Shown piece by piece: positions 29,886 through 46,919 of a stretch of DNA of 64,000 bases. Every line of letters begins with the position of its first letter. Position 1 is the first letter of the stretch. The notes beneath the pieces were generated by a model, which did not search any database, was not told the DNA's origin, and saw nothing but the letters and a program-made list of their open reading frames with translations. The position numbers and the translations under genes were made by a program. Source of the DNA: an uncultured Candidatus Binatia bacterium (GTDB taxonomy: Bacteria; Desulfobacterota; Binatia; UBA9968; JAJDTQ01); NCBI GenBank assembly GCA_965219905.1, contig CBDCOS010000004.1, forward strand, positions 48,696 through 112,695, in the 5' to 3' direction.

Positions 29886-30851
29886 GTGAACATGATGAAA
29901 TCGGCCGATTTCGTCGAGGCCCGGCGGAGGCTCGAGGCCAAGCCCCAATCCACCGGTGAGAAGCTCACCACCCTGTCAGACGCCGTCGAGAGGGTCCAGG
30001 ACGGCGACCATATCGCCATTGGAGGATGTCTCTTCTCGCGCAGCCCCCTGGCCGCGTTGATGGAAGTGTTGCGCCGGCGCAGACGCGGCCTGACGCTGTC
30101 GCGGAACCTCATGTGCTACGAGGGCGAGCTGTTCATGGCGGCCAAGGCCGTGGACGGGCTGATGACGAGCTGGTTCGACATCGCCCTCCCCTGGGGTCTC
30201 TCCCTCAAGCTTCGCGAGGAGGTCGAAGGGGGGCGGATCCGGTTCGAGGAGTGGAGCCATCTGGGGCTCGGGCTCCGTTACCGCGCCGGCGCCATGGGGG
30301 TCCCCTTTCTGCCCACCCTCACCATGCTGGGTTCGGACCTGATGGGGGTCACCGACACCAAGACCATGACCTGCCCGTTTACCGGAGAGACGCTCTGCCT
30401 CGTGCCGGGGCTTTTCCCCGAGGTGGCGCTGATCCACGTGCATCGGGCCGACCGTTTCGGCAACTGCCAGATCGACGGCTACCCGCACATGGACACGGAT
30501 ATCGCCAAGGCCGCCGCCACCGTGATCGTCACGGCCGAGGAGATCATCGACGAAGAGGAGGTGCGCCGCCGTCCGGACCGTACCGTGATCCCCGGGCTGG
30601 TGGTGGACGCGGTGGTGGAGGTGCCCTACGGCTCCTTTCCGCACGAGTGCTACGGCTTGTACGAAGCCGACTTCGCCCACTTCGAGGCCTACACCGACGC
30701 CGTCAAGGCACGGGGAACCGGCGCCATCAACGACTATCTCGACCGCTACGTCTACGGCGTCTCCAGTCACCGGGAATACCTGGCGTTGTTCGGAGAAGAG
30801 TCGCTGGCGCGGCAGAGACGGTGCGCCGAGGAGCTCCTGGGAGCGCGATGA
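29886..30851 (+). CDS. Family I CoA-transferase, subunit A (glutaconate-CoA-transferase-like)
   Basis: DGDHIAIGG, the subunit A/B pair architecture, and PFLPT. The start may be GTG 29886 or ATG 29892/29895. Confidence 0.75.
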   Translation: MNMMKSADFVEARRRLEAKPQSTGEKLTTLSDAVERVQDGDHIAIGGCLFSRSPLAALMEVLRRRRRGLTLSRNLMCYEGELFMAAKAVDGLMTSWFDIALPWGLSLKLREEVEGGRIRFEEWSHLGLGLRYRAGAMGVPFLPTLTMLGSDLMGVTDTKTMTCPFTGETLCLVPGLFPEVALIHVHRADRFGNCQIDGYPHMDTDIAKAAATVIVTAEEIIDEEEVRRRPDRTVIPGLVVDAVVEVPYGSFPHECYGLYEADFAHFEAYTDAVKARGTGAINDYLDRYVYGVSSHREYLALFGEESLARQRRCAEELLGAR

Positions 30852-31609
30852 GCTATTCCGCCACCGAGCTTCTGGCGGTGGTCGCCGCCCGGCAACTCGC
30901 CGGCGTGACTTCGGTGTTTGCCGGCGTGGGGGTGCCGCTGGTGTCGGCGGTGCTGGCGCAGAAGACCCGGGCGCCGGATCTGGTCATCGTGGTGGAGGGC
31001 GGCAGCATGGGCCCGCAGATGGTGCCGGGGCGCCTGCCGTACTCCACCAACGAGATGCGCACCGCGCCCAGGGCGCAGATGCTGCCGGGCATCACCGACA
31101 CCTTCCTGTTCGCCCAACGGGGTTTCCTGGACGTAGGTTTCGTGGGCGGAGCGCAGATCGACTGCCACGGCAATCTCAACTCGAGCGTCATCGGCGGCTA
31201 CGACCGCCCCAAGGTGCGCCTGCCGGGCAGCGGCGGCGCCAACGACATCATCTCGCTGTGCCGCAAGGTGATGGTGGTGACCATGCACGAGCGGCGGCGG
31301 TTTGTGCCCCAGGTGGATTTCGTCACCAGTCCGGGATTTCTGGCGGGTGGGGATTCGCGCCGCAAGGCGGGCCTCCTGTTCGGCACCGTGAGCCGCATCG
31401 TGACCCACCTGGGCACGCTGGCGTTCGACGGCGAGACCCGGCGGCTGCGGCTGGAGAGCCTCCACCCGGGAGTCACCGTCCAGGAGGTACTGGACAACAC
31501 CGGGTTCGATCTGCCCGTGCCCGACGACGTGCCGGTCACGGAGCCCCCCAGCGGGGAAGAGCTGGCGACCTTGCGTAGCATCGACCCGGAGAGGAACTTT
31601 CTCGGGTAG
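30848..31609 (+). CDS. Family I CoA-transferase, subunit B
   Basis: GVGVPL, LPGSGGANDI. ATGA overlap with the subunit A stop. Confidence 0.75.
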   Translation: MSYSATELLAVVAARQLAGVTSVFAGVGVPLVSAVLAQKTRAPDLVIVVEGGSMGPQMVPGRLPYSTNEMRTAPRAQMLPGITDTFLFAQRGFLDVGFVGGAQIDCHGNLNSSVIGGYDRPKVRLPGSGGANDIISLCRKVMVVTMHERRRFVPQVDFVTSPGFLAGGDSRRKAGLLFGTVSRIVTHLGTLAFDGETRRLRLESLHPGVTVQEVLDNTGFDLPVPDDVPVTEPPSGEELATLRSIDPERNFLG

Positions 31610-31636
31610 TCCGAAACATTGATGGAGTCGTAATTC

Positions 31637-32578
31637 ATGCCGGTACAGTTTGGAGTCGCCATTCGCAATTTCGTCGGTCCTGGGGAGACCCCGGACGTGG
31701 ACGGGTTGATACGTTATTCCCAACGCGCCGAGGAGCTGGGGTTCGAGTCGCTATGGGCCTGGGACCACGTCCTGCTGGGGGTGGACCCGAGCTTTCCGGT
31801 GCTGGACTCGCTGACCATCCTCACCGCCATCGCCGTCCGCACCGAGCGCATCCGGCTGGGCACCGGGGTGATGGTGCTGCCGCTCCGCAACCCGGTGGTG
31901 ACCGCCAAGGTCCTGGCCAGTCTCGACCAGATCTCGGGCGGGCGCCTGCTGCTCGGGGCGGCGTCGGGCTGGTACGCCCGGGAGTTCGACGCCGTGGGCA
32001 TCTCCTTCAAGGACCGCGGCCGCATCTTCGAGCGCAACCTCGATCTGCTGGTGCGGCTCTGGACCGAGGACATGGTCACCGAGCAGGTGGACGAGCTGAA
32101 CCTCCGGTCGGCGGTGCTTCTGCCCAAGCCGGTCCAGAAGCCCCATCCGCCCATCCTCATCGGCGGCTACATCGACCGGGTGTTGCGCCGGGCGGGCCGC
32201 AAGGGGGACGGCTGGCTCACCTACTTCTACACTCCGGAGGGCTTCTCCCGGAGCTGGGCCAAGGTGCTGGACGCGGCGGAGAAGGCGGGCCGCGACCCGT
32301 CGAAGCTGACCGCCACCAACCAGCTCGCCATCTACGTGGGCCCCTCCAGGGAGGCGGCGGACGAACCCATGCGCCACTGGCTCACCACCGAGTGGGACAT
32401 CGCCAAGTGGAGCGACTCCACCATCGAGCACGCCATCCGCGGCACCGCCGACGAGTGCGCGGAGCAGCTCCAGGCCCACGTGGACGCCGGCGTTCACCGG
32501 ATCATCCTGATCCCCTACCGGTACCAGCCGGAGCAGGTGGAGAGGATCGCCTCGGAAGTGATTCCCAAGTTGAGGTGA
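31637..32578 (+). CDS. Luciferase-like (LLM class) flavin/F420-dependent oxidoreductase
   Basis: GFESLWAWDH, RIRLGTGVMVLPLRNP and GGRLLLGAASGW. Confidence 0.75.
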   Translation: MPVQFGVAIRNFVGPGETPDVDGLIRYSQRAEELGFESLWAWDHVLLGVDPSFPVLDSLTILTAIAVRTERIRLGTGVMVLPLRNPVVTAKVLASLDQISGGRLLLGAASGWYAREFDAVGISFKDRGRIFERNLDLLVRLWTEDMVTEQVDELNLRSAVLLPKPVQKPHPPILIGGYIDRVLRRAGRKGDGWLTYFYTPEGFSRSWAKVLDAAEKAGRDPSKLTATNQLAIYVGPSREAADEPMRHWLTTEWDIAKWSDSTIEHAIRGTADECAEQLQAHVDAGVHRIILIPYRYQPEQVERIASEVIPKLR

Positions 32579-32600
32579 GGGATGTGCCGAGGGGGAGCAC

Positions 32601-33494
32601 ATGCGGTTTGACTATTTCGAGCCGGCGACGCTGGAGGAAGCGGGCGAGCTGCTGCGGGAAGGGAAGGGCGCCCGCAAACCGCTTGCCGGCGGCACCGACA
32701 TCGTCATACAGTTGCGCCGTCGCGTGGTCAGCACCCAGGGCCTGGTGAACCTGAAGCGGATACCGGAGCTTTGGGGCTGGGCGCGCGAGCCCGGCGAGGG
32801 GCTCCGGCTCGGAGCGTGCACGCCCATGCGCGACCTGGAGACCGCCGCCGCCGTGGGTGAGCGTTTTCCCTCCATCACCGAGGCGCTTCGGGTGGTGGGG
32901 TCGCTGCAGTTGAGGAACATCGCCAGCGTGGGCGGCAACCTGTGCAACGCCTCGCCATCGGCGGACACGGCGCCGCCGCTGGTGGCGCTCGGAGCCACGG
33001 CCAGCGTGACGACCCCTGAATCCGGGCGGGAAACGGTGCGTGTGGAGAATTTCTTCGAGGGGCCCGGCGTGTCGGTGCTGGGCACGGGCGGACTGCTCCT
33101 GGGGGTGGAGGTGCCGGAGCCGGAGCCGTGCACCGGGGACGCCTTCGAGCGCTTCACGCCGCGGTCGGCCATGGACATCGCCATCGCCAGCGCCGCGGCG
33201 GCGGTGACGCTGGATGCGGCCGGCGAACGGGTGGCGGCCGCGCGGATCGCGCTCGGCGCGGTGGCGCCCACGCCCGTGAGGGCTCTCAGGGCGGAGGAGT
33301 TCGTGCAGGGGAAGGAACTGACGCCCGAGGTGCTGGAGCGGGCGGGCCGGGCGGCCATGGACGAGTGCCGGCCCATCGACGACATCCGCGGGTCGGCGGC
33401 CTACCGCAGGGAGCTGGTGGCGATTCTCGTGAAACGCGTGCTGCGGCAGGCAATGGAGCGGGCCCGGGCGCGCTCCGGCATGGAAACGGCATGA
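32601..33494 (+). CDS. Molybdenum hydroxylase FAD-binding subunit (CoxM/XdhB-like)
   Basis: LAGGTDIVIQL, GGNLCNASPSADT and IRGSAAYRRE. Confidence 0.85.
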   Translation: MRFDYFEPATLEEAGELLREGKGARKPLAGGTDIVIQLRRRVVSTQGLVNLKRIPELWGWAREPGEGLRLGACTPMRDLETAAAVGERFPSITEALRVVGSLQLRNIASVGGNLCNASPSADTAPPLVALGATASVTTPESGRETVRVENFFEGPGVSVLGTGGLLLGVEVPEPEPCTGDAFERFTPRSAMDIAIASAAAAVTLDAAGERVAAARIALGAVAPTPVRALRAEEFVQGKELTPEVLERAGRAAMDECRPIDDIRGSAAYRRELVAILVKRVLRQAMERARARSGMETA

Positions 33495-33967
33495 GACAAC
33501 GCTACGCACTACGGGTGAACGGGGAGGCCAGGGAAACCGAAGCCGAGCCCCACGAGTCGTTGCTGGACGTGTTGCGGGAGAACCTTCGGCTCACCGGCAG
33601 CAAGAAGGGTTGCAACGAGGCCGAATGCGGCTCGTGCACGGTGTTGCTGAACGGCCGGCCGGTGGTGTCCTGCCTGGTGTTGGTTCCGGACGCCGTGGGC
33701 CGGGAGATCGTCACCATCGAAGCCCTGGCCGAAGGCGGGACTCCACACCCCGTGCAGCGGCAGATGGTGGAGCAGGGCGGCGTCCAGTGCGGCTACTGCA
33801 CTCCCGGGATGATCATGAGCGCCTACGCGCTGCTCCGGGGGAACCCGAATCCCACGGACGAAGAGATCCGATTCGCCATATCCGGAAACATCTGCCGCTG
33901 CACGGGATACGGCAAGATCGTCAAGGCCGTCCGCGCCGCCGCGGAAGAGCTCGGAGGAGCGTCGTGA
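33491..33967 (+). CDS. Molybdenum hydroxylase [2Fe-2S] subunit (CoxS-like)
   Basis: GCNEAECGSCTVLLNG and QCGYCTPGMIMS...NICRCTGY. ATGA overlap with the upstream stop. Confidence 0.9.
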   Translation: MRQRYALRVNGEARETEAEPHESLLDVLRENLRLTGSKKGCNEAECGSCTVLLNGRPVVSCLVLVPDAVGREIVTIEALAEGGTPHPVQRQMVEQGGVQCGYCTPGMIMSAYALLRGNPNPTDEEIRFAISGNICRCTGYGKIVKAVRAAAEELGGAS

Positions 33968-35271
33968 GCGAGGATACGTCCCGGGAGAAGGCCGGCGCGT
34001 ACCACTGGATCGGGAAGAACGTCACCAAGCCCGACGCGCTGGAGAAGGCGCTGGGGGCCACCGAATACGTGGGCGACATGGTGGTGCCCGGCATGCTCCA
34101 CGCCAAGATCCTGTGGGCGGGAACGCCCCACGCGGTGATCCGCAACATCGACACCGGGGATGCGGCCCGGGTGCCGGGCGTGGCCGCGGTGCTTACCGCG
34201 CCGGACGTGCCCGGAACCAACCGTTACGGACTGGCCGTGCAGGACCAGCGGGCGCTGGCCGACGACAAGGTAAGGTCCGCGGGCGACGCGTTGGCGCTGG
34301 TGGCGGCCGAGGACGAGGAGGCGGCCGAGGAGGCGGTGGCGAAGATCAAGGTGGACCTGGAGCCGTTGCGCCCCATCCTCACCTACAAGGATGCCCTGGA
34401 CCCCGATGGGCCTCCGATCCACGAGGGCGGCAACGTGTTCCAGCACACCACGGTGCGCAAGGGCGACCTGGAGAAGGGTATCCAGGAGTCGGACGTGATC
34501 GTGGAGAACAGCTACCACACGCACCGGATGGATCACGTCCCCATGGAGCCGGAGGCGGGTCTGGCCTACGTCGATCCCTCCGGTGTTCTGAACATCCTGG
34601 TGGGGACCCAGTACCCCTACCGGGACCGGCGTCAGATCGCCCCGGCCCTGGACCTGGCCATGAACAAGGTGCGGGTCATCCAGGCCCCCATCGGCGGCGG
34701 CTTCGGACGCAAGGACGACATCACCGCCGAGATCCACGTGGGCCTGCTGGCGCTGAAGACGCGGCGGCCGGTGCGCCTGGTCTATACCCGGGAAGAGTCC
34801 CTCATCGCCAACACCAAGCGCCACCCCATGGCCATGAACTTCCGCACCGGCGCCCGCTCGGACGGCCGGCTGACCTTTCTCGACGGCGATATCTACGGCG
34901 ACACGGGCGCGGGAGTCTCCCTCGGCGCCTATGTCATCAAGAAGGCCGGCATCCACGCCACCGGCCCCTACGACGTGCCCAACATCCGGGTGGACACCTA
35001 TACGCTCTACACCAACAACCTCGTCTCCGGCGCCATGAGAGGCTTCGGAGTGATGCAGGCGGCGGTGGCCCACGAGTCGCAGATGGACCAGTTGGCTCAC
35101 CGGCTCGGCATGTCGCCGCTGGAATTCCGGATCAAGAACTGCCTCAAGCCGGGGCTCGCCTCCTCCACCGGACAGTTGATGAACGAGGGTTGCGGCATCG
35201 AGGCGACGCTGCAGCGGATCAAGGACTACATGAGCGCGCACGACCTGCGCTTCAACCGTCCGGGACACTAG
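33964..35271 (+). CDS. Molybdenum hydroxylase molybdopterin subunit, N-terminal part (L-like)
   Basis: GKNVTKPDALEKALGATEYVGD, QAPIGGGFGRK and SGAMRGFG. It ends at TAG 35269-35271, in the same frame as the next ORF. Confidence 0.85.
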   Translation: MSEDTSREKAGAYHWIGKNVTKPDALEKALGATEYVGDMVVPGMLHAKILWAGTPHAVIRNIDTGDAARVPGVAAVLTAPDVPGTNRYGLAVQDQRALADDKVRSAGDALALVAAEDEEAAEEAVAKIKVDLEPLRPILTYKDALDPDGPPIHEGGNVFQHTTVRKGDLEKGIQESDVIVENSYHTHRMDHVPMEPEAGLAYVDPSGVLNILVGTQYPYRDRRQIAPALDLAMNKVRVIQAPIGGGFGRKDDITAEIHVGLLALKTRRPVRLVYTREESLIANTKRHPMAMNFRTGARSDGRLTFLDGDIYGDTGAGVSLGAYVIKKAGIHATGPYDVPNIRVDTYTLYTNNLVSGAMRGFGVMQAAVAHESQMDQLAHRLGMSPLEFRIKNCLKPGLASSTGQLMNEGCGIEATLQRIKDYMSAHDLRFNRPGH

Positions 35272-35277
35272 ACGGCC

Positions 35278-36291
35278 ATGGCGATCAGAAAAGGCCTGGG
35301 CATCGGCTCCATGTACTACGGCATCGGCTACGGCTTCAGCCGGGCCGACATCGGCTCGGCCGAGATCGAGATGGCCGAGGACGGCACCACCACGGTCTAC
35401 TCGGGGGCGTGCGACATGGGCCAGGGGGTCATGACCGTGGTGACCCAGGTGGCCGCGGAGGAGTTGGGCATCGAGCCGGACCAGATCCGCGTGGTGGCCG
35501 CCGATACCGGCAGCACGCCGGACGCGGGGCCCACCTCGGGCAGCCGCGCCACCTTCGTCCAGGGCGTGGCGGTGCAGAACGCGGCCCAGGAGTTGCGCGG
35601 GCAGATCCTGGACATGGCCTCGCGCATGCTGGAGTGCCCCAAGGAGAACCTGCACGTGCGGCGGGGCGAGGTGTGCGAGGTCGGCACCGACCGGCCGCTG
35701 GTGTCGGTGGGCAAGGTGGCACACCAGCTCCACTTCCACGGGCGGCGGGCGGCGGCCTGGGGCTGGCATGACAACACCACCGCCGACGTGGACCCGGAGA
35801 CCTCCCAGGGCGACGCCTACGCCACCTACGGCTGGGCCACGCAGTTGGCGGAGGTGGAGGTGGACACCGAGACCGGCCGCATCCGGCTGACCAAGCTGGT
35901 GTCGGCCACCGACGCCGGCAAGGCCATCAACCCGGTGGCGGTGGAGGGGCAGATCGAGGGCGGCGCCGCCATGGGCCTGGGCTACGGCCTCTACGAGCAG
36001 CACATCCTGGAGAACGGCGTGCCGCGCACGGCCTCGCTGGCATTCTATCTCGTGCCCACCTCCATGGACGTACCCGACATCGAGTGCGAGATCGTGGAGG
36101 TGCCCGATCCCCGGGGCCCGTTCGGCGCCAAGGGCGTGGCCGAGCCGGCCACCATTCCCACGACGCCGGCCATCCTCAACGCCATCTATGACGCCATCGG
36201 CATCCGCATCACCGAGACGCCCATCACGCCGGAACGGGTCTTCTTCGCCATCCAGGAGGCCAGGGCCCGGGGCGAGTTCGAAGAAGACTGA
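35278..36291 (+). CDS. Molybdenum hydroxylase molybdopterin subunit, C-terminal part (M-like)
   Basis: GIGSMYYGIGYG, CDMGQGV, DTGSTPDAGPTSGSR and PFGAKGVAEPA. ATG lies 6 nt after the in-frame TAG. Confidence 0.85.
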   Translation: MAIRKGLGIGSMYYGIGYGFSRADIGSAEIEMAEDGTTTVYSGACDMGQGVMTVVTQVAAEELGIEPDQIRVVAADTGSTPDAGPTSGSRATFVQGVAVQNAAQELRGQILDMASRMLECPKENLHVRRGEVCEVGTDRPLVSVGKVAHQLHFHGRRAAAWGWHDNTTADVDPETSQGDAYATYGWATQLAEVEVDTETGRIRLTKLVSATDAGKAINPVAVEGQIEGGAAMGLGYGLYEQHILENGVPRTASLAFYLVPTSMDVPDIECEIVEVPDPRGPFGAKGVAEPATIPTTPAILNAIYDAIGIRITETPITPERVFFAIQEARARGEFEED

Positions 36292-36307: not shown

Positions 36308-36997
36308 TTGGGTCATCGCGTCGGACTGCTCGTCCCCTCGTCCAACACGGTCATGGAGGTGGACTTCTACCGCCACCTGCCGGCGTCGGCCACGGTCCAC
36401 ACCGGCCGGATGTACATGGAAGCCACCACGGTCAAGGGCGAGGAGGAGATGCTCGACAAGCACTGCCTGCCGGCGTCGGCCGACGTGGCCACCGCCAAGC
36501 CGGACCTGATGGTGTTCGGCTGCACCAGCGCCGGGGCGTTGCGGGGCAATGCCTACGACGCCGAGCTGTGCCGCCGCATCTCCGATGTCGCCGGCAAGCC
36601 CACCGTCAGCGTCATCGAGTCGGTGCGGCGCAAGCTGATGTCGCTGGAGGCGCGGCGGGTGGCGGTGCTCACGCCCTATATCGAGGACCTCAACGTCCGC
36701 ATCAAGGCCAGCGTGGAGGACGACGGCATCGAGGTGGCCTCGATCCACGGCATGGGCATCAGCGTCAACTTCAACCTGGCGCTGGTGGAGCCGCCGGAGA
36801 TCCTGGCCTTCGCCCGGGAGAAGCTGGGCGCCCGTCCGCGGGTGGACGCCCTGTTCATCTCCTGCACCAACTACCAGGCGGTGGCGACGCTGCCGGAGTT
36901 GAAGAAGCTGTACGACATGCCCATTGTAACCAGCAACCAGGCCGCCCTCGAGGCGGTGGGCCGGGCGCTGGACCTGGAGCTGGTGGGCATGGGATGA
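36308..36997 (+). CDS. Asp/Glu-racemase-superfamily enzyme, maleate cis-trans isomerase-like (alternatively arylmalonate decarboxylase-like)
   Basis: VGLLVPSSNTV plus two candidate catalytic cysteines in FGCTSAG and FISCTNY. TTG start with GGGAGGAAAGG upstream. Confidence 0.65.
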   Translation: MGHRVGLLVPSSNTVMEVDFYRHLPASATVHTGRMYMEATTVKGEEEMLDKHCLPASADVATAKPDLMVFGCTSAGALRGNAYDAELCRRISDVAGKPTVSVIESVRRKLMSLEARRVAVLTPYIEDLNVRIKASVEDDGIEVASIHGMGISVNFNLALVEPPEILAFAREKLGARPRVDALFISCTNYQAVATLPELKKLYDMPIVTSNQAALEAVGRALDLELVGMG

Positions 36998-37102: not shown

Positions 37103-37975
37103 ATGGAATTCATGAAGCTCGACGGCGCCGTGGACCTGCACGTGCACTCCTATCCGTGCGTGTTCCAGCGGCGGGTGGATGACCGGGAGGCGGTGAAGGC
37201 CGCCTCGGAGGCGGGGATGGCGGCCATCGTGCTGAAGTGCCATCACGAGAGCACGGTGAGCCGGGCCTACCTGATCCAGAAGGAGTTCCCGGACATCAAG
37301 GTGTTCGGCGGCGTGGTGATGAACCAGTTCGTCGGCGGCATCAATCCGGCCGCGGCCGAGGTGGCCCTCCGGCTCGGCGCCAAGGAGGTCTGGATGCCCA
37401 CTATCGACGCCGCCCACCACGTGGATATCCACGGCGCCCGGGGCAGCTACGACACCCAGACCAGCGGCTCGGACTTCGTCTGGGGCGACCCCATCTCCGC
37501 GGTGAAGGACGGCAAGGTGGTGAACGAGGCCTTGGTGGTGCTGGAGCTCATCGCCAAGCACGACGCCATCCTGGGCACCGCGCATCTCTCCCTGGGAGAG
37601 ATCGAGCTGCTGGTGAAGGCGGCCCACGAGCGGGGGGTGAAGAAGATCCTGATCACCCACCCCTACTTCCGGGTGCCCGCGGGCATGAACCTGGACTTCC
37701 TGAAGCAGATGATGCGCTACGGCGCCATCGGCGAGTTCGGCTACTGCACCATCTCGCCCATGTGGGCCTACGTGAACCTGGAGTTCACCAAGGGCATCAT
37801 GGACTCCATGGGCTTCGACAACTGCCTGGTCATGAGCGACACCGGCCAGTCCCACAACCCGCTGCCCCCGGAGGCGCTGTGGCTCTATGCCCAGGGCCTG
37901 TACGAGAAGGGCGTCTCGCCCCGCAACGTCGAGAAGCTCATCGTCGACAACCCGCGGGCGATGCTGGGCATCTGA
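37103..37975 (+). CDS. Metal-dependent hydrolase-like protein (amidohydrolase/PHP-like fold, DUF6282-like)
   Basis: DLHVHS near the N-terminus, then further His clusters (KCHHES, AAHHVDIHG, ITHP). AGGAGGAGG RBS. The family name is from memory only. Confidence 0.5.
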   Translation: MEFMKLDGAVDLHVHSYPCVFQRRVDDREAVKAASEAGMAAIVLKCHHESTVSRAYLIQKEFPDIKVFGGVVMNQFVGGINPAAAEVALRLGAKEVWMPTIDAAHHVDIHGARGSYDTQTSGSDFVWGDPISAVKDGKVVNEALVVLELIAKHDAILGTAHLSLGEIELLVKAAHERGVKKILITHPYFRVPAGMNLDFLKQMMRYGAIGEFGYCTISPMWAYVNLEFTKGIMDSMGFDNCLVMSDTGQSHNPLPPEALWLYAQGLYEKGVSPRNVEKLIVDNPRAMLGI

Positions 37976-40322: not shown

Positions 40323-41710
40323 TGGGAGGCAAGGAGAATCGTGTGCCACAGGACTTGCAGAGTTTCTTGAAGCGATTGAAGGATGAATGCCCCGAGCAGT
40401 TCCTCGAGGTAGAGGAGCCGGTGTCCCGGGAGTTCGAGGCCACGGCCCTGGTCATGGAGGCCGAGCGGCTGCCGACCTGCCCGGCGGTGATGTTCCGGAA
40501 CGTCACCGGGAGCGGATTCACCATGGCGGCCAACGTGCTGGCGCACCGTCCGCGGCTGGCCTGGGCCTTCGGGACCTCGGAGGAGAGGCTGGTGCACGAG
40601 TTCAAGGAGCGCATCCAGCGACCCGTGCCGCCCAAGGTATTGAAGGATGCTCCCTTCCAGGAGAACAGCCGGCAGGGTGACGCGGTGGATCTGGGAGAGC
40701 TCCCCATCCTGACCCATTTCGAGCAGGACGGCGGCCCCTACGTGACCGCAGGGCTGGTGGTGGCGCGGGACCCGCAGTCGGGCATGAGCACGGTGGGATT
40801 CCATCGGATGCAACTCAAGGGGCCGCGCAAGCTGGGAGTGAGCCTGCACTCCCGGCGGCGCATGTTCGAGTACTTCCGGCGTTCGGAGGAAAAGGGCGAG
40901 TCCCTGGAAGCCGCGGTCTGCATCGGCGTGCACCCGCTGGTCTCCCTGGGTGCCTTGACGTTGCCGCCGGCGGGGACGGAGAAGTTCGCGCTGCAGGGAG
41001 GGTTGTTGGGCGAACCCCTGGAGTTGACGCCCTGTGCCACCGTGGACGTCGACGTGCCCCGATGGTCGGAGATCGTCATCGAGGGGCGGATCCTCAAGGA
41101 CGTGCGGGAAAAGGAAGGGCCGTTCGGCGAGTTCACCGGCTACGCTTCGAGCCGGAGCACGGAGAACGTCTTCGAGGCCACCGCCCTGCATTACCGAAAC
41201 GGCGCCGTCTACCAGGACATCAACGGCGGCGACAGCATGGAGCATTGCCGCTGCCTGTCCATGCCCCGGGAGGTGGAGTTCACCAACGTGCTGGGGAAGA
41301 CCATTCCCAACCTCAAGGCGGTGCACGTGCCGGTGCGGTCGGGCATCGGCAGCTTCCACTGTTACGTGTCCCTGCGGAAGACGGCCGAGGGGCAGGGGAA
41401 GCAGGCGATCTTCAGCGTCATGGGCGCCGACCACTACGTCAAGCTGGTGGTGGTGGTGGACGACGACGTCGACATCTTCGACGAGGAGCAGGTGCTGTGG
41501 GCCATCGCCACACGGATGCAGGCCAACCGGGATGTCTTCATCATCGACGAGGCCATGGGCACGCTGCTGGACCCGTCGGCCACCGACGCCATCACCGCGA
41601 AGATGGGCATCGACGCCACCAAACCCTTGGGCGAGTTCGCCTCGACCCTGTCCATCGAGCCGGGGGCGGTGGAGCGCGCCCGGCAGCTCATGGGCAAGTT
41701 GACCGGCTGA
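40319..41710 (+). CDS. UbiD-family decarboxylase, paralog 3 (first of a tandem pair)
   Basis: GGPYVTAG, VGFHRMQL, EKEGPFGEFTGY and VVDDDVDIFDEEQVLWAIATR. ATGA overlap with the upstream stop. Confidence 0.85.
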   Translation: MMGGKENRVPQDLQSFLKRLKDECPEQFLEVEEPVSREFEATALVMEAERLPTCPAVMFRNVTGSGFTMAANVLAHRPRLAWAFGTSEERLVHEFKERIQRPVPPKVLKDAPFQENSRQGDAVDLGELPILTHFEQDGGPYVTAGLVVARDPQSGMSTVGFHRMQLKGPRKLGVSLHSRRRMFEYFRRSEEKGESLEAAVCIGVHPLVSLGALTLPPAGTEKFALQGGLLGEPLELTPCATVDVDVPRWSEIVIEGRILKDVREKEGPFGEFTGYASSRSTENVFEATALHYRNGAVYQDINGGDSMEHCRCLSMPREVEFTNVLGKTIPNLKAVHVPVRSGIGSFHCYVSLRKTAEGQGKQAIFSVMGADHYVKLVVVVDDDVDIFDEEQVLWAIATRMQANRDVFIIDEAMGTLLDPSATDAITAKMGIDATKPLGEFASTLSIEPGAVERARQLMGKLTG

Positions 41711-41714: not shown

Positions 41715-43304
41715 ATGGGGACTTTCCGGACCTTCCTGGACGATCTGCGGAGCGCCGGCGAGCTGGTGGACATCTGCAAGCCGGTGGACGTCCGGCACAT
41801 CGCGGCCCTGGTGGACCAGGCGTCCACCGCGCTGTTGTTCCACAGGGTGCACGGCTACGAGATGCCCGTGGTCTCCGGGCTGTTGAACGACCGCAAGCGC
41901 ATCGCCCTGTCGGCCGGCTGCGACTACGCGCAGATGGAGCGGCGCCTCAGCCACGCCCTCGACCATCCCATCGATCCGATTGAAGTCAGCGACGGCGGCG
42001 AGCGGACATGGTATCGGGAGGGGGCCGCCGTGGACCTCTTCGACCTGCCGGTGCCGGTCTTCTCCGAGTTCGACGGCGGCCCCACCATTACCGCCGGCGT
42101 TACCCTGGCCCGCGATCCCGAGCACGGCCTGAACGCGGGCACGTACCGTTTCCAGATAAAGGAGCGCGCCCTCACCGGCATCGACATCGTCACGCCCAAC
42201 AACCTGCGCAGGCTGGCGGAGAAGGCCCTGGCGGCCAACGCGCCGCTGCCCGTCTCCATCAACATCGGCACCCACCCGGTGGAGCTGATGGCGTCCCTCT
42301 ACAAGGCGCCCCTGGGGCGCGACGAGCTGGCCATCGCCGGCGGCATGCTGGGGCGGCCGGTGCGCCTGGGCGCCTGCAAGACCATCGACACTCCCTGCCT
42401 GGCGGATGCCGAGATCGTGCTGGAGGCGGAGATCCTCCCCACCGGCTGGACCCGTCAGGAAGGCCGCTTCGGCGAGATGACGCGCCTCATGGGCGACGTG
42501 CACTACAACCCGCACGTGCGGGTGAAGGCCATCGCGCGCCGCCGGGACGCCATCTACTACGCGCTGCACATGCCCTGGGAGAACATCTGGATCAAGGAGC
42601 ACGGTTTCCAGGCGGTGCTCAGGCGGGTCCTCGACGCGGCCGGGGTGACGGTGACCGCGGTGAACGTCACCCCCGGAGGCTGCTGCCACTGGCACGCCGT
42701 GATCGCCATCCGGAAGCAGCCGGGCGATCCCCAGAACGCCATCATGGCGGCGCTGTCGGTGGCGGACCTCAAGCACGTGGTGATCGTGGATGACGAGATC
42801 GATGTCTACGACGCCATGGAGGTGGAATGGGCCATGGCCACCCGGGTGCAGGCGGACCGCGACATTACCATTCTCTCGGACGCCCGCTCGAAGCCCCTGG
42901 ACCCGAGTCTGCCGTTGTCGGAGGGCATCCCCACCACCGCCAAGTGCGGCATCGACGCCACCATCCCCGACGGCGTCCCCAGGGCGCGGTATCAGCGCAT
43001 CACCTATCCTCACGCGGATGAGCTGGACCTCGGCGCCTACCTGGGCGAAGCGGAACCCGGCGATGTGGCCCCCGAGGCCGCGGGGGGCGCCGCCGGCGTC
43101 GCAAGCGTCGGAGATGTCGCGGCGGCCATACGGGAACGGCTCGCCGGCCGCTCCTTGTACTTCAGCGAGATCGCGGACAGCTTTCCTGGAACCGGCCTGA
43201 AGTCCACGGCTCGCGCCATGGGCGAGTTGCACGCGGCCGGGGAGATCGATCAGGACGCGGAGGGACGCTACCGGCTCGTTGACAGCCCCCGAGGGCTGCG
43301 ATAA
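41715..43304 (+). CDS. UbiD-family protein, paralog 4 (divergent, with an approximately 90-aa C-terminal extension)
   Basis: GGPTITAG, AGTYRFQI, QEGRFGEMTRLMG (TGY lost) and IVDDEIDVYDAMEVEWAMATR. It starts 4 nt after paralog 3 ends. Confidence 0.8.
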   Translation: MGTFRTFLDDLRSAGELVDICKPVDVRHIAALVDQASTALLFHRVHGYEMPVVSGLLNDRKRIALSAGCDYAQMERRLSHALDHPIDPIEVSDGGERTWYREGAAVDLFDLPVPVFSEFDGGPTITAGVTLARDPEHGLNAGTYRFQIKERALTGIDIVTPNNLRRLAEKALAANAPLPVSINIGTHPVELMASLYKAPLGRDELAIAGGMLGRPVRLGACKTIDTPCLADAEIVLEAEILPTGWTRQEGRFGEMTRLMGDVHYNPHVRVKAIARRRDAIYYALHMPWENIWIKEHGFQAVLRRVLDAAGVTVTAVNVTPGGCCHWHAVIAIRKQPGDPQNAIMAALSVADLKHVVIVDDEIDVYDAMEVEWAMATRVQADRDITILSDARSKPLDPSLPLSEGIPTTAKCGIDATIPDGVPRARYQRITYPHADELDLGAYLGEAEPGDVAPEAAGGAAGVASVGDVAAAIRERLAGRSLYFSEIADSFPGTGLKSTARAMGELHAAGEIDQDAEGRYRLVDSPRGLR

Positions 43305-43332: not shown

Positions 43333-44421
43333 ATGCCAACCATCAACGACGCCGACGGCCACATCAACGATTACTTCTTCGGCGACGAGATCGCCAGGTA
43401 CATGCCCGCGGGGAACCAGTTCAGCCAGTTGTTCCCCGTGTTCGACCATCTCCACTTCCGCTACCTGATGAAGAACCGCGTGCCCAAGTACGTCGGCGGC
43501 AGCATGAAGACCGCGCCGGGACCCGAGGAGTGGCTGGCGTTCATCGACGAGACCGGCATCGCCTGGAGCGTGCTCTATCCCAGCGCCGGGCTGGGAGTCG
43601 GGCGCATGGTGTCGGTGGAGTGGGCCATCGCCGCCTGCCGGGCCTACAACAACTGGCTCCACGACCGTTTCACCAGCACCACCCCGCGCCTCAAGGGCGT
43701 GGGCCTCATTCCGATACAGGACGAAGAGGCGGCGGTGGCGGAGCTGCATCGTTGCGTCCGGGAGCTGGGCATGGTCGGCGCCATGCTGCCGTCCAACGGC
43801 GAGGCCATCAAGGGCCAGCTCGGAGCCAAAGCCTACTGGCCGATCTACGAGGAAGCGGAGAAGCTCGGCTGCTGCCTCACCGTGCACGGCGGCGCGCACC
43901 ACCATCTCGGTCTCGACGGCTTCAGCGTCTACTATCCGGTGCACGCCCTGGGCCATCCCTTCGGAGTCATGGTGCAGGCGGCGGCGATGCTGAGCCACGG
44001 CATCTTCGAACGCTTCCCCGGGCTGCGGGTGGGTTTTCTCGAAGGGGGCGCCACCTGGGTGCCGTTCTTCATGGACCGGCTCGACCGCTCGTACAACGAG
44101 GGACACCTCCAGATCGACCTGGCGGGAGACCCCGTCCCAGGCCCACAGCCGGGCGAGAAGGCCAGCGAGCACTTCAAGCGCCACGTCCGGGAGGGGCGGA
44201 TCTTCGTCGGCTTCGACTGCGACGACGCCGGGCTCGCCTTTGCGGTGCAGCAGGCCGGCGCCGAGCCTTTCCTTTTCGCCAGCGACTTCCCCCACGAGAT
44301 CTTCGATGCCGCTACCTGCCGGCACGAGATCGATGAGCTGCTGAAGCGGGAGGACCTTACGCAAGAGCAGAAGGAGGCGGTGCTGGGCGGGAACGCGGCA
44401 CGCCTCTACGGTCTCGCGTAG
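43333..44421 (+). CDS. Amidohydrolase-2 family protein (ACMSD-like hydrolase/decarboxylase fold)
   Basis: INDADGHIND, LTVHGG and ASDFPHE. AAAGGAGAAGG RBS before ATG 43333. Confidence 0.75.
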   Translation: MPTINDADGHINDYFFGDEIARYMPAGNQFSQLFPVFDHLHFRYLMKNRVPKYVGGSMKTAPGPEEWLAFIDETGIAWSVLYPSAGLGVGRMVSVEWAIAACRAYNNWLHDRFTSTTPRLKGVGLIPIQDEEAAVAELHRCVRELGMVGAMLPSNGEAIKGQLGAKAYWPIYEEAEKLGCCLTVHGGAHHHLGLDGFSVYYPVHALGHPFGVMVQAAAMLSHGIFERFPGLRVGFLEGGATWVPFFMDRLDRSYNEGHLQIDLAGDPVPGPQPGEKASEHFKRHVREGRIFVGFDCDDAGLAFAVQQAGAEPFLFASDFPHEIFDAATCRHEIDELLKREDLTQEQKEAVLGGNAARLYGLA

Positions 44422-44431
44422 GTGCCTGGAC

Positions 44432-45430
44432 ATGCTCTTTCTCACGGAAGAAGACGTTCTCCGGGCCATCCAGGACCGTAACGCATACGGAGAGGCGGTT
44501 TCGGTCATCGAGGAGGTGCTGCGGCAGCAGTCCGAGGGCAGCACCTTCCATCTCAAGCGCCTCACCATGGAGCACCCCGACCACCCGGGCCACCTTTGGC
44601 ACAACATCCGTATCCTGCCGGGCATGGTGCCGGAGCTGGGCTACGCGGCGGTGCGGGTCTACTCGGGATACCAGGGGACCAACCGCTCCGAGGTCATCTG
44701 CCTGTTCGACTGGAAGGACATGGAGATGACGGCCATCATCTCGGACTACCACCTGCACGCCATCCGGACCGCGTCGCCTTACGGCGTGGCGGCCAAGTAC
44801 CTGTCGCGGGAGGACGCGCAAACCCTGGGGGTCATCGGCACCGGCCGCTACGCCAAGGGCTTCGTCCAGGCCTGCTGCGCGGTGCGCGACATCCGCCGCA
44901 TCAAGGCCTACAGCCGGAGCGCGGAAAACCGGCGGCGCTTCCGAGAGGAGATGACGGCGGTACTGGGCATCGAGGTCGTGACGGTGGACTCCGGCCGGGA
45001 AGCCGTCGAAGGAACGGACATCATGCTGCTGGCCACCTCCGGCAACACCATCGTGTTCGAGGGGGACTGGCTGGAGCCCGGGGCGCTGGTCATGTCCCTG
45101 GCCCCCGGCGAGTTCGACGAGGCGACGGTGGAGGGGTCGCGCGTTTTTCTGTCCGGCACCGACCAGGTGCTGGGCGACAGCCCGCCGCGGAAACCGTTCC
45201 CTTCGCTGCTGGCCGCTGGCAAGTTCTCGAAGGACCACGTGGCGGCGGAGTTCTGCGACGTGGTCTCCGGCAAGAAGCCCGGACGGCAGGGCGACGACGA
45301 GGTCATCCTCTACGAGTCGCCGGGCATGGGCATCCTGGACGTGGGGGTCGCGAGCTGGATCTACCGGCTGGCCCGGGAAAAGGGCCTGGGAACCGAGCTG
45401 CCCTTCGGGGAAGAACCCGCGGAGGAGTGA
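44432..45430 (+). CDS. Ornithine cyclodeaminase / mu-crystallin family NAD(P) enzyme
   Basis: AIRTASPYGVAAKYL, Rossmann motif VIGTGRYAKG, and the family's typical ~330-aa length. Confidence 0.75.
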   Translation: MLFLTEEDVLRAIQDRNAYGEAVSVIEEVLRQQSEGSTFHLKRLTMEHPDHPGHLWHNIRILPGMVPELGYAAVRVYSGYQGTNRSEVICLFDWKDMEMTAIISDYHLHAIRTASPYGVAAKYLSREDAQTLGVIGTGRYAKGFVQACCAVRDIRRIKAYSRSAENRRRFREEMTAVLGIEVVTVDSGREAVEGTDIMLLATSGNTIVFEGDWLEPGALVMSLAPGEFDEATVEGSRVFLSGTDQVLGDSPPRKPFPSLLAAGKFSKDHVAAEFCDVVSGKKPGRQGDDEVILYESPGMGILDVGVASWIYRLAREKGLGTELPFGEEPAEE

Positions 45431-45431
45431 C

Positions 45432-46919
45432 ATGCGTACGTTGATTCGCGGCGGTTGGGTCGTCGCCTATCAGGGGCAGAGTCACGCCCTCCTCCGGGAC
45501 GGCGTGGTCGTGTTCGAGGGCGGTCGCATCCTGCACGTGGGGACGGGTTTCGACGGGAACGTGGACCGGGAGATCGACGCCCGCGGGATGCTGGTGGCGC
45601 CGGGGTTCATCGACATGCACGTCCACGGCGGCCACCGCGCGTCGCACCGGCTGATCACCGACGTCGGCCGGCCGGACTACTTCGGGCAGCCCTTCCTGGA
45701 GATCAGCGTGCCGCGGGAGGGCAAGCGTCCGGCGGGCGACCCTCGCTACACCCGGCCCGACCAGGCCGGTGCGACCGAAGGCACCGACCTGCATTCCACC
45801 TTCACCGTGGCCGAGCTGCTGCGCAACGGCGTCACCACCTTCATGGAAATCGGCAGCCAGCTCCGGGTCCAGGAGGGGCTGCTCAAGGAAGTGGACCGGC
45901 TCGGCGCCCGCGCCTACCTGGGCCCCGGTTTCGACTCGGGCCGCTGGGTGGCGGACGACAAGGGCCGTCTCAAGCGGGCGCTGGACGAGGCCGCGGGCTG
46001 GCGGGAGTTCGAGGGCGCCGTGGACTTCATCAAGCGCGTGGACGGCAGTTGCGGCGACCGGGTCCGGGGGATACTGATCCCGCGGGAGGCCGAGTCCTGC
46101 ACGCTGGATCTGCTGCGGGCCACGCGGAAGGCCGCCGACGAGCTCGAGGTGCCGATTTCGACCCACGCGGCCTACAACGTCATCGAGTTCTACGAGCTGG
46201 TGACGGAGCACCGCATGACCCCGGTGGAGCTGCTGGAGTCGGTGGGCCTGCTGGGGCCCGACCTCACCATCGGCCACGGGAATCTGGTGGCGGAAAACCC
46301 CCAATTGAACTTCTCGGGAGGCCGGGACATCGAGCTCATGGGAGGATACGGCGTGTCCATCTCCCACTGTCCGGTGAACATCGCCCGCCGGGGGCGATGC
46401 CTCGATTCCTGGGAGAAGTACCGCAAGGCCGGCGTCAACATCGCGCTGGGCAGCGACACCTACCCGCGGGACTTCATGATGCAGATGCGCATCGCCTCCT
46501 ACTTCGGCAAGGTCATCGGCCGCAACCTGCGGGCGGCCACGGCGGCGGAAGTTTTCGAAGCGGCCACGCTGGGCGGGGCCCGGGCCCTGGGACGCGACGA
46601 CCTCGGACGCCTGGCGCCTGGCGCCCGGGCGGACATCATCATCGTCGATCTCTCCGGCCGCGGCACCCTCAGGTACGGGCCGGTGCGCGATCCCATCAAG
46701 GGCGTGGTGGAGTGCGGCATCGGGGACGACGTCCGCACCGTCATCGTCGACGGCAAGCTATGCGTGGAGCAGGGGCAGATCCCGGGGGTGGACCTGGAGG
46801 ACCTGCGAGCACAAGCGCAGGAGGCGGCGGAGTCCGCCTGGAATCACCTGTCGGATTGGGACGCGCTGGGCCGGACCGCCGAGGAGATGAGCCCCTGGTC
46901 CTTCCCGCTCATGAAATGA
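45432..46919 (+). CDS. Amidohydrolase-1 family (deaminase/chlorohydrolase-like)
   Basis: LVAPGFIDMHVHG (HxH), HAAYN, ISHCP and ALGSDT. Confidence 0.75.
   Translation: MRTLIRGGWVVAYQGQSHALLRDGVVVFEGGRILHVGTGFDGNVDREIDARGMLVAPGFIDMHVHGGHRASHRLITDVGRPDYFGQPFLEISVPREGKRPAGDPRYTRPDQAGATEGTDLHSTFTVAELLRNGVTTFMEIGSQLRVQEGLLKEVDRLGARAYLGPGFDSGRWVADDKGRLKRALDEAAGWREFEGAVDFIKRVDGSCGDRVRGILIPREAESCTLDLLRATRKAADELEVPISTHAAYNVIEFYELVTEHRMTPVELLESVGLLGPDLTIGHGNLVAENPQLNFSGGRDIELMGGYGVSISHCPVNIARRGRCLDSWEKYRKAGVNIALGSDTYPRDFMMQMRIASYFGKVIGRNLRAATAAEVFEAATLGGARALGRDDLGRLAPGARADIIIVDLSGRGTLRYGPVRDPIKGVVECGIGDDVRTVIVDGKLCVEQGQIPGVDLEDLRAQAQEAAESAWNHLSDWDALGRTAEEMSPWSFPLMK

Follow-up and report, generated by a model that had tools for sequence, protein, structure and literature searches.

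A 64-kb stretch of DNA from a Candidatus Binatia genome (hereafter the window) carries 16 consecutive plus-strand genes, g1–g16 (29886–46919, ~17 kb; Table 1), whose predicted products suggest an undescribed core pathway for an N-heteroaromatic carboxylic acid, with water rather than O2 as the oxygen source, embedded in a composite catabolic operon. We hold this reading with middling confidence, and all catalytic steps are assigned from families that are 25–45% identical to characterized members. The core, g4–g9, encodes an NdhFSLM-type molybdenum hydroxylase, a two-cysteine enzyme resembling arylmalonate decarboxylase (AMDase) and maleate isomerase, and a protein of the DUF6282 family. It is spread over at least six phyla, with versions in Binatia, Dehalococcoidia, Anaerolineae, Chloroflexia, Actinomycetota and Bacillota.

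Conservation of the operon was traced by a genome scan with a DUF6282 alignment, which yielded 78 loci; open reading frames (ORFs) were called in each, overlaps were resolved by cross-locus similarity, and the products were clustered. The best loci come from Candidatus Binatia metagenome-assembled genomes (MAGs) in which g9 is 99% identical, some of them older records labeled Deltaproteobacteria or Syntrophobacterales. The complete gene set, in unchanged order and at 82–99% amino-acid identity by tblastn, is present in 11 Binatia loci (L004–L007, L009, L019, L021, L022, L033, L038 and L042), and the arrangement is therefore more than chance. In these loci, mutL/miaA usually lie upstream, and EamA follows downstream in every case where the flank is long enough. 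Reduced versions are also found: L015–L018 and L020 lack g13 and g14, L014 lacks g14, and the cluster in L012 occupies a different genomic position. The operon is real and inherited, with a 3′ part that varies even among Binatia.

In the window, the ORF listing and an analysis of third-codon-position GC content (GC3, 0.83–0.96 for g1–g16) outline the 16-gene run. The intergenic gaps measure, in order, 27, 22, 6, 16, 105, 34, 18, 4, 28, 10 and 1 nt, and four 4-nt start/stop overlaps lie at 30848, 33491, 33964 and 40319. The g8 gene starts with TTG at 36308 behind a strong ribosome-binding site, GGGAGGAAAGG, and g14 with ATG at 43333, with AAGGAG ahead of it. An earlier note on this DNA, made from the letters alone, had listed 16 plus-strand genes with these gaps and overlaps; the coordinates match exactly, and every gene family that it named was confirmed with Pfam and NCBIfam. 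The same two databases identify no stand-alone regulator or transporter among the 16 products, again as the note had it, with the proviso that g13 carries a winged-helix-like domain. No GC break was seen at the ends of the operon (window GC, 63–71%), and a compositional island was rejected for that reason. A promoter/terminator scan gave 0 promoters and 3 terminator-like sites, where 7.1 were expected, and is uninformative at 67% GC. The upstream flank consists of the housekeeping genes mutL and miaA, and the downstream flank of a minus-strand EamA transporter gene followed by pheA, an aminotransferase gene, tyrA, aroA, cmk and rpsA. The mutL–miaA pair (26991–29700) lies ~30 kb from mutS (59198–61795), with the operon and the aromatic amino-acid genes in between.

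Outside Binatia, we counted the neighbors within 10 kb of DUF6282 at 52 non-redundant loci. An AMDase-like gene is present at 36 of them, a molybdenum large subunit at 30, a PALP-family enzyme at 22 and a UbiD at six; the full triad of molybdenum hydroxylase, AMDase-like enzyme and DUF6282 occurs at 27. Three types of reductase accompany this triad. A luciferase-like (LLM) oxidoreductase, usually with coenzyme A (CoA)-transferase A/B genes (CoA_trans), is found at 7 of the 27 loci (Dehalococcoidia, Actinomycetota and an Anaerolineae-like contig) and also in Binatia; a PreA-like flavoprotein (DHO_dh plus 2×[4Fe-4S]) at six (the Bacillota Moorella and Peptococcaceae, and one unclassified MAG); and an Frd-like FAD_binding_2/Succ_DH_flav_C protein with a small Fer2_3 partner at four (Chloroflexia, Anaerolineales-type and one Peptococcaceae MAG). 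One locus, from Moorella naiadis (L074), has PreA and Frd together, and no reductase was seen at the remaining nine, several of which are short contigs. The LLM enzyme never shares a triad locus with a PreA-like or Frd-like reductase (0/27), a mutually exclusive pattern. UbiD pairs adjoin the core in L028, L029, L045 and L050, and a Methylomirabilales contig of 20,704 nt carries both DUF6282 (P0032) and a g12-like UbiD (P0263). Identities between phyla are high (80–86% for g9, 72–81% for g6/g7 and 74–80% for g10) and point to strong constraint, to lateral spread of the cluster, or to both. The core is also carried by the cultured isolates Moorella naiadis AZ13.I (L074) and Moorellaceae AZ2 (L061); Syntrophaceticus schinkii Sp3 (L055) has PreA and DUF6282 only. 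Because cultured isolates carry it, the function of the core is directly testable.

Such modularity could also arise if the Binatia operon were a concatenation of two or three unrelated modules (g1–g3; g4–g11; g12–g16) that share only a promoter in this class. The modules do differ in phyletic pattern, relatives of g16 occur in unrelated contexts, a CoA-transferase/LLM trio stands apart from the core on an Acidobacteria contig, and some Binatia operons lack g13, g14 or g16. However, independent phyla show the core reunited repeatedly, and in differing orders, with UbiD pairs, CoA-transferases and reductases, and genes on either side of a module border are translationally coupled (overlap of g11 and g12 at 40319; gaps of 1–28 nt), leaving concatenation, in our estimation, very unlikely. 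The earlier description of the operon as one tightly coupled module needs to be divided: the conserved order holds in the 11 Binatia loci, but instead of a single co-conserved unit we find a core, three reductase sets, a UbiD add-on and a Binatia-only tail.

The genes flanking the core in other phyla bear on what the pathway is for. In the Bacillota and Actinomycetota versions, the flanking genes include PucR-family regulators, and IclR regulators occur at some Chloroflexota and Actinomycetota loci. Uptake systems are of the Dpp/Opp-type ABC class in Chloroflexota and of the Liv-type ABC and DctPQM tripartite ATP-independent periplasmic (TRAP) classes in Bacillota; in Streptosporangiaceae, an NCS1 permease of the cytosine/purine/allantoin type follows the core. 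Bacillota neighbors include LarA-like, 2-oxoacid:ferredoxin oxidoreductase, Iso_dh and aconitase-family genes, and Actinomycetota neighbors include arginase-family, Amidohydro_2 and DUF1989 genes. Such a setting marks an inducible catabolic cluster and not a biosynthetic one. It supports the earlier reading of the module as catabolic, directed at an aromatic or N-heterocyclic carboxylate, and, with PucR/IclR regulators and uptake systems around the core in other phyla, it makes the biosynthetic alternative that the same note had left standing unlikely.

In its most specific form, that alternative would have the CysK-like, ThrC-like and ornithine cyclodeaminase (OCD)-family products make a non-proteinogenic amino acid, metallophore or cofactor from a heterocyclic precursor through SbnA/SbnB-type chemistry. 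Siderophore pathways use pairs of CysK-like and OCD enzymes to make 2,3-diaminopropionate, weak matches link g10 to the SbnA model and g15 to the SbnB model, and the Binatia operon lacks an uptake system or regulator of its own. Against this, the Sbn scores fall far below their cut-offs (203 versus 350 bits for g10; 106 versus 327 bits for g15), and on these scores we rejected an SbnA/SbnB diaminopropionate pair; there is no nonribosomal peptide synthetase, ligase or exporter logic; catabolic regulators and importers flank the core elsewhere; and OCD is absent from the core outside Binatia. We consider a biosynthetic module highly improbable.

The same neighborhoods could instead indicate a purine, pyrimidine, imidazole or hydantoin-type cyclic ureide as substrate, with the UbiD enzymes decarboxylating an imidazole or pyrimidine carboxylate intermediate. 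The cluster would in that case offer an alternative to the 2,8-dioxopurine and reductive pyrimidine pathways. PucR flanks the Bacillota and Actinomycetota versions, the NCS1 permease follows in Streptosporangiaceae, and arginase-family and DUF1989 genes lie nearby. Moreover, the PreA-like reductase is a member of the dihydroorotate/dihydropyrimidine dehydrogenase family, g4–g6 find their best NCBIfam models in XdhB, PucD and a selenium-dependent xanthine dehydrogenase (XDH), g16 matches SsnA weakly (80–81 bits; cut-offs 444–455), and the DUF6282 fold resembles dihydroorotase among others. The logic of the cluster also runs parallel to that of the 2,8-dioxopurine pathway. Nevertheless, YgfK, HyuA, YgeY, YgeW, YqeA and YgeX are all absent; the CoA-transferases, TRAP transporters and HmfF-like UbiDs indicate carboxylic acids; the NCBIfam scores of g4–g6 are far below the equivalog cut-offs; and PucR regulators are not confined to purine catabolism. 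A cyclic ureide is, in our view, distinctly unlikely.

The molybdenum hydroxylase itself comprises four polypeptides in the NdhFSLM arrangement: an FAD subunit, a 2×[2Fe-2S] subunit and a molybdopterin subunit split into L and M. The best PDB matches of g6 (3HRD_A, 384 bits; next match 200) and g7 (3HRD_B, 238 bits; next match 182) identify the split-subunit nicotinate dehydrogenase of the anaerobe Eubacterium barkeri as the nearest solved relative; NicAB/PicA, which the earlier note took to be nearest, is displaced by this four-subunit enzyme in the PDB search. The g6 product is 44% identical to E. barkeri NdhL. More generally, the L subunits of all cluster versions are 50–56% identical among themselves across phyla and share 42–47% identity with NdhL. 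Because its identity is only 42–47% and uniform over the cluster versions, NdhL looks like a related outgroup, not an orthologue. We also rejected a 4-hydroxybenzoyl-CoA reductase, since g4 has no 4Fe-4S insertion and matches the beta-subunit model over residues 3–116 only.

Kinship with nicotinate dehydrogenase suggests nicotinate, or another pyridine-3-carboxylate, as a rival substrate. The cluster would then encode a non-B12 variant of the E. barkeri fermentation in which DUF6282 replaces enamidase: nicotinate would pass through 6-hydroxynicotinate and tetrahydro-6-oxonicotinate to 2-formylglutarate or a C5 dicarboxylate, taken up by the GctAB-like transferase, and the UbiD pair would feed in quinolinate or 2,5-pyridinedicarboxylate. 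The nearest solved molybdenum enzyme shares the same four-polypeptide split, the CoA-transferase is nearest to glutaconate CoA-transferase, which acts on C5 dicarboxylates, and a PreA-like reductase suits reduction of a C=C bond beside a lactam carbonyl. By contrast, the identity to NdhL is low and uniform, like that of an outgroup, and the pyridoxal phosphate (PLP) enzyme pair, the racemase-type enzyme and OCD are left without a role because opening of a 3-carboxylate ring yields no alpha-amino acid. Furthermore, the E. barkeri genes reportedly described by Alhapel et al. in 2006 encode enamidase, 2-(hydroxymethyl)glutarate dehydrogenase and dehydratase, a B12-dependent 2-methyleneglutarate mutase, methylitaconate isomerase, dimethylmaleate hydratase and dimethylmalate lyase, and no downstream family on this list is present among the 16 products or the flanking genes. 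A pyridine-3-carboxylate substrate therefore seems to us quite improbable.

The two remaining core enzymes are g9 and g8. A PDB sequence search with g9 returned no match. In an AlphaFold2 model (mean predicted local distance difference test score, pLDDT, 88.6), g9 forms a (beta/alpha)8 barrel, for which Foldseek lists phosphotriesterase-like lactonases, PTE, LigI (2-pyrone-4,6-dicarboxylate lactonase), dihydroorotase and ACMSD-type enzymes at template-modeling (TM) scores of 0.55–0.62. Six residues (D11, H13, H15, H161, H186 and D246) are invariant in 19 DUF6282 sequences, in agreement with the layout of the amidohydrolase superfamily, in which HxH follows strand 1, strands 5 and 6 are each followed by His, and strand 8 by Asp. 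The barrel fold and the invariant HxH/H/H/D set place DUF6282 in this superfamily as a divergent, predicted metal-dependent enzyme. Among 1.84 billion representatives, the family accounts for ~915 clusters (50% identity; E <= 1e-30), and a literature search found no published description of it. Distant members (33–45% identity; plasmids and Nitrospinota-like contigs) sit in varied contexts that do not narrow the chemistry. In one protein, P0420, a complete thiamine pyrophosphate (TPP)-dependent enzyme with N, M and C domains is fused to a C-terminal DUF6282; TPP-enzyme genes also occur in the window (14489–16135) and beside UbiD or g16 relatives in two other loci (L082, L087).

The g8 protein belongs to the Asp/Glu/hydantoin-racemase superfamily, as the earlier note proposed in calling it maleate-isomerase-like. 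The family assignment stands; the specific identity does not, as maleate isomerase, AMDase and EutA are all at about the same distance from g8, which has DUF6282 as a constant neighbor. Both half-site cysteines, C72 and C186, are present and are kept in 57 and 58, respectively, of 62 relatives. In AMDase, a single catalytic Cys remains and the first half-site Cys is replaced by Gly. On sequence, the two-cysteine pattern of g8 is of the predicted racemase/isomerase type, not the decarboxylase type, and retention of both cysteines led us to reject g8 as a true arylmalonate decarboxylase.

Two PLP enzymes follow the core in Binatia. The g10 product scores 354 bits against the cysK model TIGR01139 (cut-off 351), but every cluster-linked copy has [ST]TGSTG in place of the CysK TSGNTG loop; relatives above 57% identity are limited to Binatia, Dehalococcoidia, Anaerolineae and one unclassified MAG. 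A ThrC-like enzyme often accompanies the core in other lineages, and relatives of g11 (44–52% identity) occur in Chloroflexia and Bacillota clusters.

The next two genes, g12 and g13, encode UbiD-family decarboxylases that are 31% identical to each other. Both contain three UbiD domains and an acid-pair motif (EGPFGE in g12, EGRFGE in g13), whose ExxxxE pair we take to correspond to Fdc1 E277/E282, and both are nearest to the 2,5-furandicarboxylate decarboxylase HmfF, with the next-best different UbiD enzyme at 174 bits (g12) and 163 bits (g13). HmfF-type membership applies at the family level only. In g13, a C-terminal extension (residues ~435–529; window 43017–43301) is modeled as helix-helix-helix-strand-strand at pLDDT >90; ~60 of its residues fold like the winged-helix domains of YodB, Zur, IclR and ArsR-type regulators (E 0.01–0.08; root-mean-square deviation 1.2–2 Å over ~55–60 residues). 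Conservation of the extension reaches to other Binatia and, at a weaker level, to L028 and L045. In total, there are four UbiD genes and three Amidohydro_2 genes in the window. The third UbiD paralog (24482–25960) is preceded by a 126-residue ORF with no Pfam match (region 24083–25960), and this region sits between relA/spoT and a bifunctional-nuclease/PDZ gene.

HmfF-like decarboxylases invite comparison with furan catabolism, in which 2,5-furandicarboxylate would be converted to 2-furoate and furoyl-CoA, hydroxylated as in the hmf/Trudgill pathway and opened by DUF6282 acting as a lactonase. Both UbiDs are indeed nearest to HmfF, and close relatives carry the Joint Genome Institute label ‘2,5-furandicarboxylate decarboxylase 1’; CoA activation combined with a molybdenum hydroxylase mirrors HmfD plus HmfABC; and the top fold matches of DUF6282 include lactonases and LigI. 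Yet the ring reductase, PLP enzymes, OCD and deaminase would be superfluous in a furoate pathway, the operon contains no HmfD-type ligase, HmfE hydratase or HmfG/UbiX (no AMP-binding, ECH or Flavoprotein domains), and many versions of the core lack both UbiD and CoA-transferase. A furan pathway strikes us as scarcely credible.

At the 5′ end of the operon, g1 and g2 encode the A and B subunits of a family-I, GctAB-type CoA-transferase. Residue E50 of g2 (VIVVEGG) aligns with the GctB Glu in ‘IIVESG’, presumably the catalytic residue, and the decarboxylase AibB has N or S at this position. The AibAB decarboxylase and the IpdAB ring hydrolase rank second and third among the PDB matches of g1/g2; with the catalytic Glu retained and almost double the score for GctAB, we think them less likely. 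The Chloroflexia version of the cluster has two family-III CoA-transferases instead. The g3 product exceeds the cut-off of the F420-linked model TIGR03619 (207 versus 167 bits). A CoA_trans A/B plus LLM trio resembling g1–g3 also occurs on Acidobacteria contig JACQSX010000038 (L086, 15825–18556), 4.5 kb from a g12-type UbiD that is 73% identical; no molybdenum hydroxylase or DUF6282 was present in the 20 kb examined there.

Taken as a water-dependent pathway for an N-heteroaromatic acid, these enzymes could act in the following order. First, the HmfF-like UbiDs g12 and g13 would take one carboxyl next to the ring heteroatom off a dicarboxylate. Next, g4–g7 would hydroxylate the carbon adjoining the ring nitrogen to give a pyridone/lactam. 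The GctAB-like g1/g2 could then form a CoA thioester, allowing the F420-type LLM enzyme g3 to reduce a ring C=C bond, a role that the PreA-like or Frd-like flavoprotein might fill in other phyla. DUF6282 (g9) would open the resulting cyclic amide, with g8 supplying the stereo- or geometric isomer accepted by the hydrolase or the PLP enzymes. Finally, g11 and g10 would turn the alpha-amino (di)acid into a 2-oxo or 2-hydroxy dicarboxylate destined for central metabolism.

The skeleton that we favor for this scheme runs from dipicolinate through picolinate, 6-hydroxypicolinate and a reduced lactam (as CoA ester) to 2-amino/2-oxoadipate, and we favor it only weakly, as a tentative and unlikely assignment; nicotinate-type and purine/pyrimidine-type substrates are live rivals. 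Several features hint at a 2-carboxylate. The carboxyl that HmfF removes lies alpha to the heteroatom; cyclic 2-imino/2-amino acids are the substrates of OCD-family enzymes; and both fold-type-II PLP enzymes and Asp/Glu-type racemases depend on an alpha-amino acid, a product that ring opening gives only with a 2-carboxylate. We also count as a hint the Bacillota neighbors, which handle 2-oxo/2-hydroxy acids. Dipicolinate is favored because it is the most abundant natural compound with a carboxylate next to a heteroatom. By extension, the core with its HmfF-like UbiD feeders might constitute an oxygen-independent pathway for dipicolinate/picolinate-type pyridine-2-carboxylates in Binatia, Chloroflexota, Actinomycetota, Methylomirabilota and spore-forming Bacillota, a wider proposition that we consider unlikely.

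Several observations weigh against the scheme or parts of it. Substrate identity cannot be read from the molybdenum subunit because NdhL is equally distant (42–47%) from every cluster version. A reduced (4,5-) enamide would have no stereocenter and would lose ammonia spontaneously, and the roles of g8, g10 and g11 are the least explained because such an enamide is achiral and self-deaminating. There is no UbiX gene among the annotated ORFs of the window. The CoA-transferase/LLM trio may serve another step because it is present near a UbiD gene without a molybdenum enzyme on the Acidobacteria contig, and g14–g16 may be functionally unrelated passengers. Finally, the Streptosporangiaceae NCS1 permease and the PucR, arginase-family and DUF1989 genes point to a ureide ring, which they would fit better than a pyridine.

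If the class-level reading is correct, water-dependent degradation of N-heterocyclic acids has gone unrecognized in at least six phyla, whose carriers are mostly uncultured soil, groundwater and sediment lineages. It would give DUF6282 its first function, extend the HmfF branch of UbiD beyond furans and provide a case in which three unrelated reductase systems fill one slot according to the cofactors of the host (F420, or flavin/Fe-S). If, in addition, the substrate is dipicolinate or picolinate, a new lactam hydrolase for ring opening would have been found in DUF6282, the CoA-transferase and F420-type LLM enzyme would represent a new form of heteroaryl ring reduction, and spore-derived dipicolinate, a large pool of carbon and nitrogen, would gain in soils and sediments the anaerobic sink that is otherwise missing.

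The last three genes of the operon accompany the core in Binatia only, as relatives of g14, g15 and g16 near DUF6282 were found at 0 of the 52 non-redundant loci outside the class. The best PDB matches of g14 are dimetal oxygenases with the amidohydrolase fold (8SM9, PtmU3, AibH) and ACMSD, all at 75–82 bits, and g14 is the least conserved gene, absent from several Binatia operons. The ‘PicC-like’ decarboxylase function once suggested for g14 is ambiguous, given that the protein is as close to the dimetal oxygenases as to decarboxylases. The g16 family is large and highly conserved, with members 72–77% identical in Methylomirabilota and others, and these relatives adjoin Tct or ABC transporters in unrelated contexts. 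We propose that g14–g16 form a tail that probably widens the range of entry substrates to hydroxy-, amino- or saturated analogues.

Near the start of the window, at ~1–9 kb (1284–8863), lies a second putative aromatic-acid module, consisting of tandem Amidohydro_2 paralogs, TctB/TctA/TctC-like genes and a fourth UbiD paralog (Table 1).

Two repeat families lie next to the operon. Repeat A (~170 nt) has a ~75-nt core that is near-identical between its two copies, upstream of g1 and of mutS, with ~37-nt arms on either side; the arms differ between copies, yet are complementary within each copy (compensatory changes). It could be a miniature inverted-repeat transposable element (MITE) or a structured RNA element, and an Rfam search gave no match in the window. 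Repeat A copies occur elsewhere at varied positions (L009, L010, L014, L042 and L049). Repeat B (3522–3777 and 46936–47045) consists of tandem 18-nt CCTCCATCATTTCTACCC units and a hairpin, GTCATTCCCGCG(A/G)AAGCGGGAATCC, and is a dispersed element resembling repetitive extragenic palindromic (REP) sequences or MITEs. In other Binatia, repeat B sits inside operon gaps: L011 and L013 have it immediately ahead of the DUF6282 gene, and L004, L006 and L007 have it within the operon, ~3.2–3.4 kb downstream of the start of that gene. The repeats reported earlier as bracketing the operon do exist, but a boundary role is not borne out: we rejected them as operon or island boundaries, and the bracketing is incidental, because in other Binatia they are dispersed at other positions, including the intergenic gaps of the operon itself.

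Table 1 Genes and repeats of the operon and of the second module, in window coordinates
Feature	Position	Strand	Assignment and supporting match
g1	29886–30851	+	Family-I CoA-transferase subunit A, GctA-like; Pfam CoA_trans; best PDB 1POI_A, 142 bits
g2	30848–31609	+	CoA-transferase subunit B, GctB-like; Pfam CoA_trans; 1POI_B, 150 bits
g3	31637–32578	+	Luciferase-like (LLM) oxidoreductase, F420-dependent subfamily; Pfam Bac_luciferase
g4	32601–33494	+	Molybdenum hydroxylase FAD subunit, NdhF/CoxM-like, 297 aa; Pfam, NCBIfam
g5	33491–33967	+	Molybdenum hydroxylase 2×[2Fe-2S] subunit, 158 aa; Pfam, NCBIfam
g6	33964–35271	+	Large-subunit N-terminal half, NdhL-like, 435 aa; Ald_Xan_dh_C + MoCoBD_1
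g7	35278–36291	+	Large-subunit C-terminal half, NdhM-like, 337 aa; MoCoBD_2
g8	36308–36997	+	Asp/Glu/hydantoin-racemase superfamily, AMDase/maleate-isomerase-like; Pfam, NCBIfam
g9	37103–37975	+	DUF6282, divergent, predicted metal-dependent amidohydrolase superfamily; Pfam; anchor of conserved core
g10	38010–39044	+	CysK-like PLP enzyme, cluster-specific subtype; Pfam, NCBIfam
g11	39063–40322	+	ThrC-like PLP enzyme, N-terminal CxxC...CxxC ribbon; PRK08197, 294 bits (cut-off 303)
g12	40319–41710	+	UbiD-family decarboxylase, HmfF-like; Pfam; 6H6V, 291 bits
g13	41715–43304	+	Second UbiD paralog, HmfF-like; 6H6V, 277 bits; C-terminal winged-helix-like domain
g14	43333–44421	+	Amidohydro_2 protein, decarboxylase or dimetal oxygenase type; Pfam and PDB search
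g15	44432–45430	+	Ornithine cyclodeaminase/mu-crystallin (OCD) family; Pfam, NCBIfam
g16	45432–46919	+	PRK06151 ‘chlorohydrolase family’ aminohydrolase; 564 bits (cut-off 416)
Repeat A	29715–29893		Between miaA and g1; second copy 58475–58653
Repeat B	46936–47045		After g16; CCTCCGTCATTCCCGC unit + hairpin GTCATTCCCGCGGAAGCGGGAATCC; repeat comparison 46954–46998, second copy 3645
Tandem Amidohydro_2 paralogs	1284–2372, 2369–3496		67% identical mutually, 25% to g14
TctB/TctA/TctC-like genes	3816–7192	−	
Fourth UbiD paralog	7418–8863		

Literature searches on the combined enzyme families, on UbiD with pyridine dicarboxylates and on 6-hydroxynicotinate reductase gave no account of a cluster with these genes, in agreement with the earlier suggestion that the module has not been described. 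In outline, the cluster works like nicotinate fermentation in E. barkeri, whose upper pathway hydroxylates the ring with water, reduces the resulting pyridone and hydrolyses the cyclic amide, the same logic that we propose here. Both systems have a four-polypeptide molybdenum hydroxylase with the molybdopterin subunit split at the same place. Unlike E. barkeri, however, the Binatia operon has a DUF6282 hydrolase and not an Amidohydro_1 enamidase, uses an F420-type LLM enzyme with a CoA-transferase as its candidate reductase, and adds PLP, UbiD, OCD and racemase-like genes that have no counterpart there.

Aerobic nicotinate and picolinate degradation (nicAB...nicX, picA–G) likewise shares a molybdenum hydroxylase, a gene of the AMDase/maleate-isomerase superfamily and an Amidohydro_2 gene with the operon, but here the Amidohydro_2 gene is not conserved with the core. 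The 2,5-dihydroxypyridine ring-cleavage dioxygenase, N-formylmaleamate deformylase, maleamate amidase and flavin monooxygenase of those routes are absent from the operon; for the dioxygenase, deformylase and amidase, the Pfam and NCBIfam assignments of the 16 products bear out what had been noted before. The hmf pathway has in common with the operon an HmfF-like UbiD and a CoA-dependent molybdenum hydroxylase step, and differs in that the operon has two UbiD paralogs, a CoA-transferase in place of the ligase, and additional nitrogen-handling enzymes and a reductase.

The 2,8-dioxopurine pathway of gut anaerobes, comprising XdhAC/DOPDH, YgfK, SsnA, HyuA, YgeY, YgeW, YqeA and YgeX, combines a molybdenum enzyme, a ring reductase, amidohydrolases and a fold-type-II PLP lyase (bioRxiv 10.1101/2025.04.24.650524). 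In outline, the sequence of enzyme classes is the same as ours, and some versions of our cluster also have PucR-type regulation. In contrast, only the XDH-type molybdenum enzyme and the weak SsnA match are shared, and the CoA-transferase, UbiD and racemase-like genes are additions. The only described catabolic route for dipicolinate, encoded by the dip cluster of Alcaligenes faecalis JQ135, is aerobic and O2-dependent, with DipD forming 3-hydroxydipicolinate independently of molybdenum cofactor (PMC11472048). The substrate would be shared only if our dipicolinate guess is right, and the Binatia operon has a molybdenum hydroxylase and decarboxylases instead. The cluster thus matches no published pathway; it is a known chemical strategy combined with an uncharacterized hydrolase family, a racemase-like partner, PLP enzymes and three interchangeable reductases.

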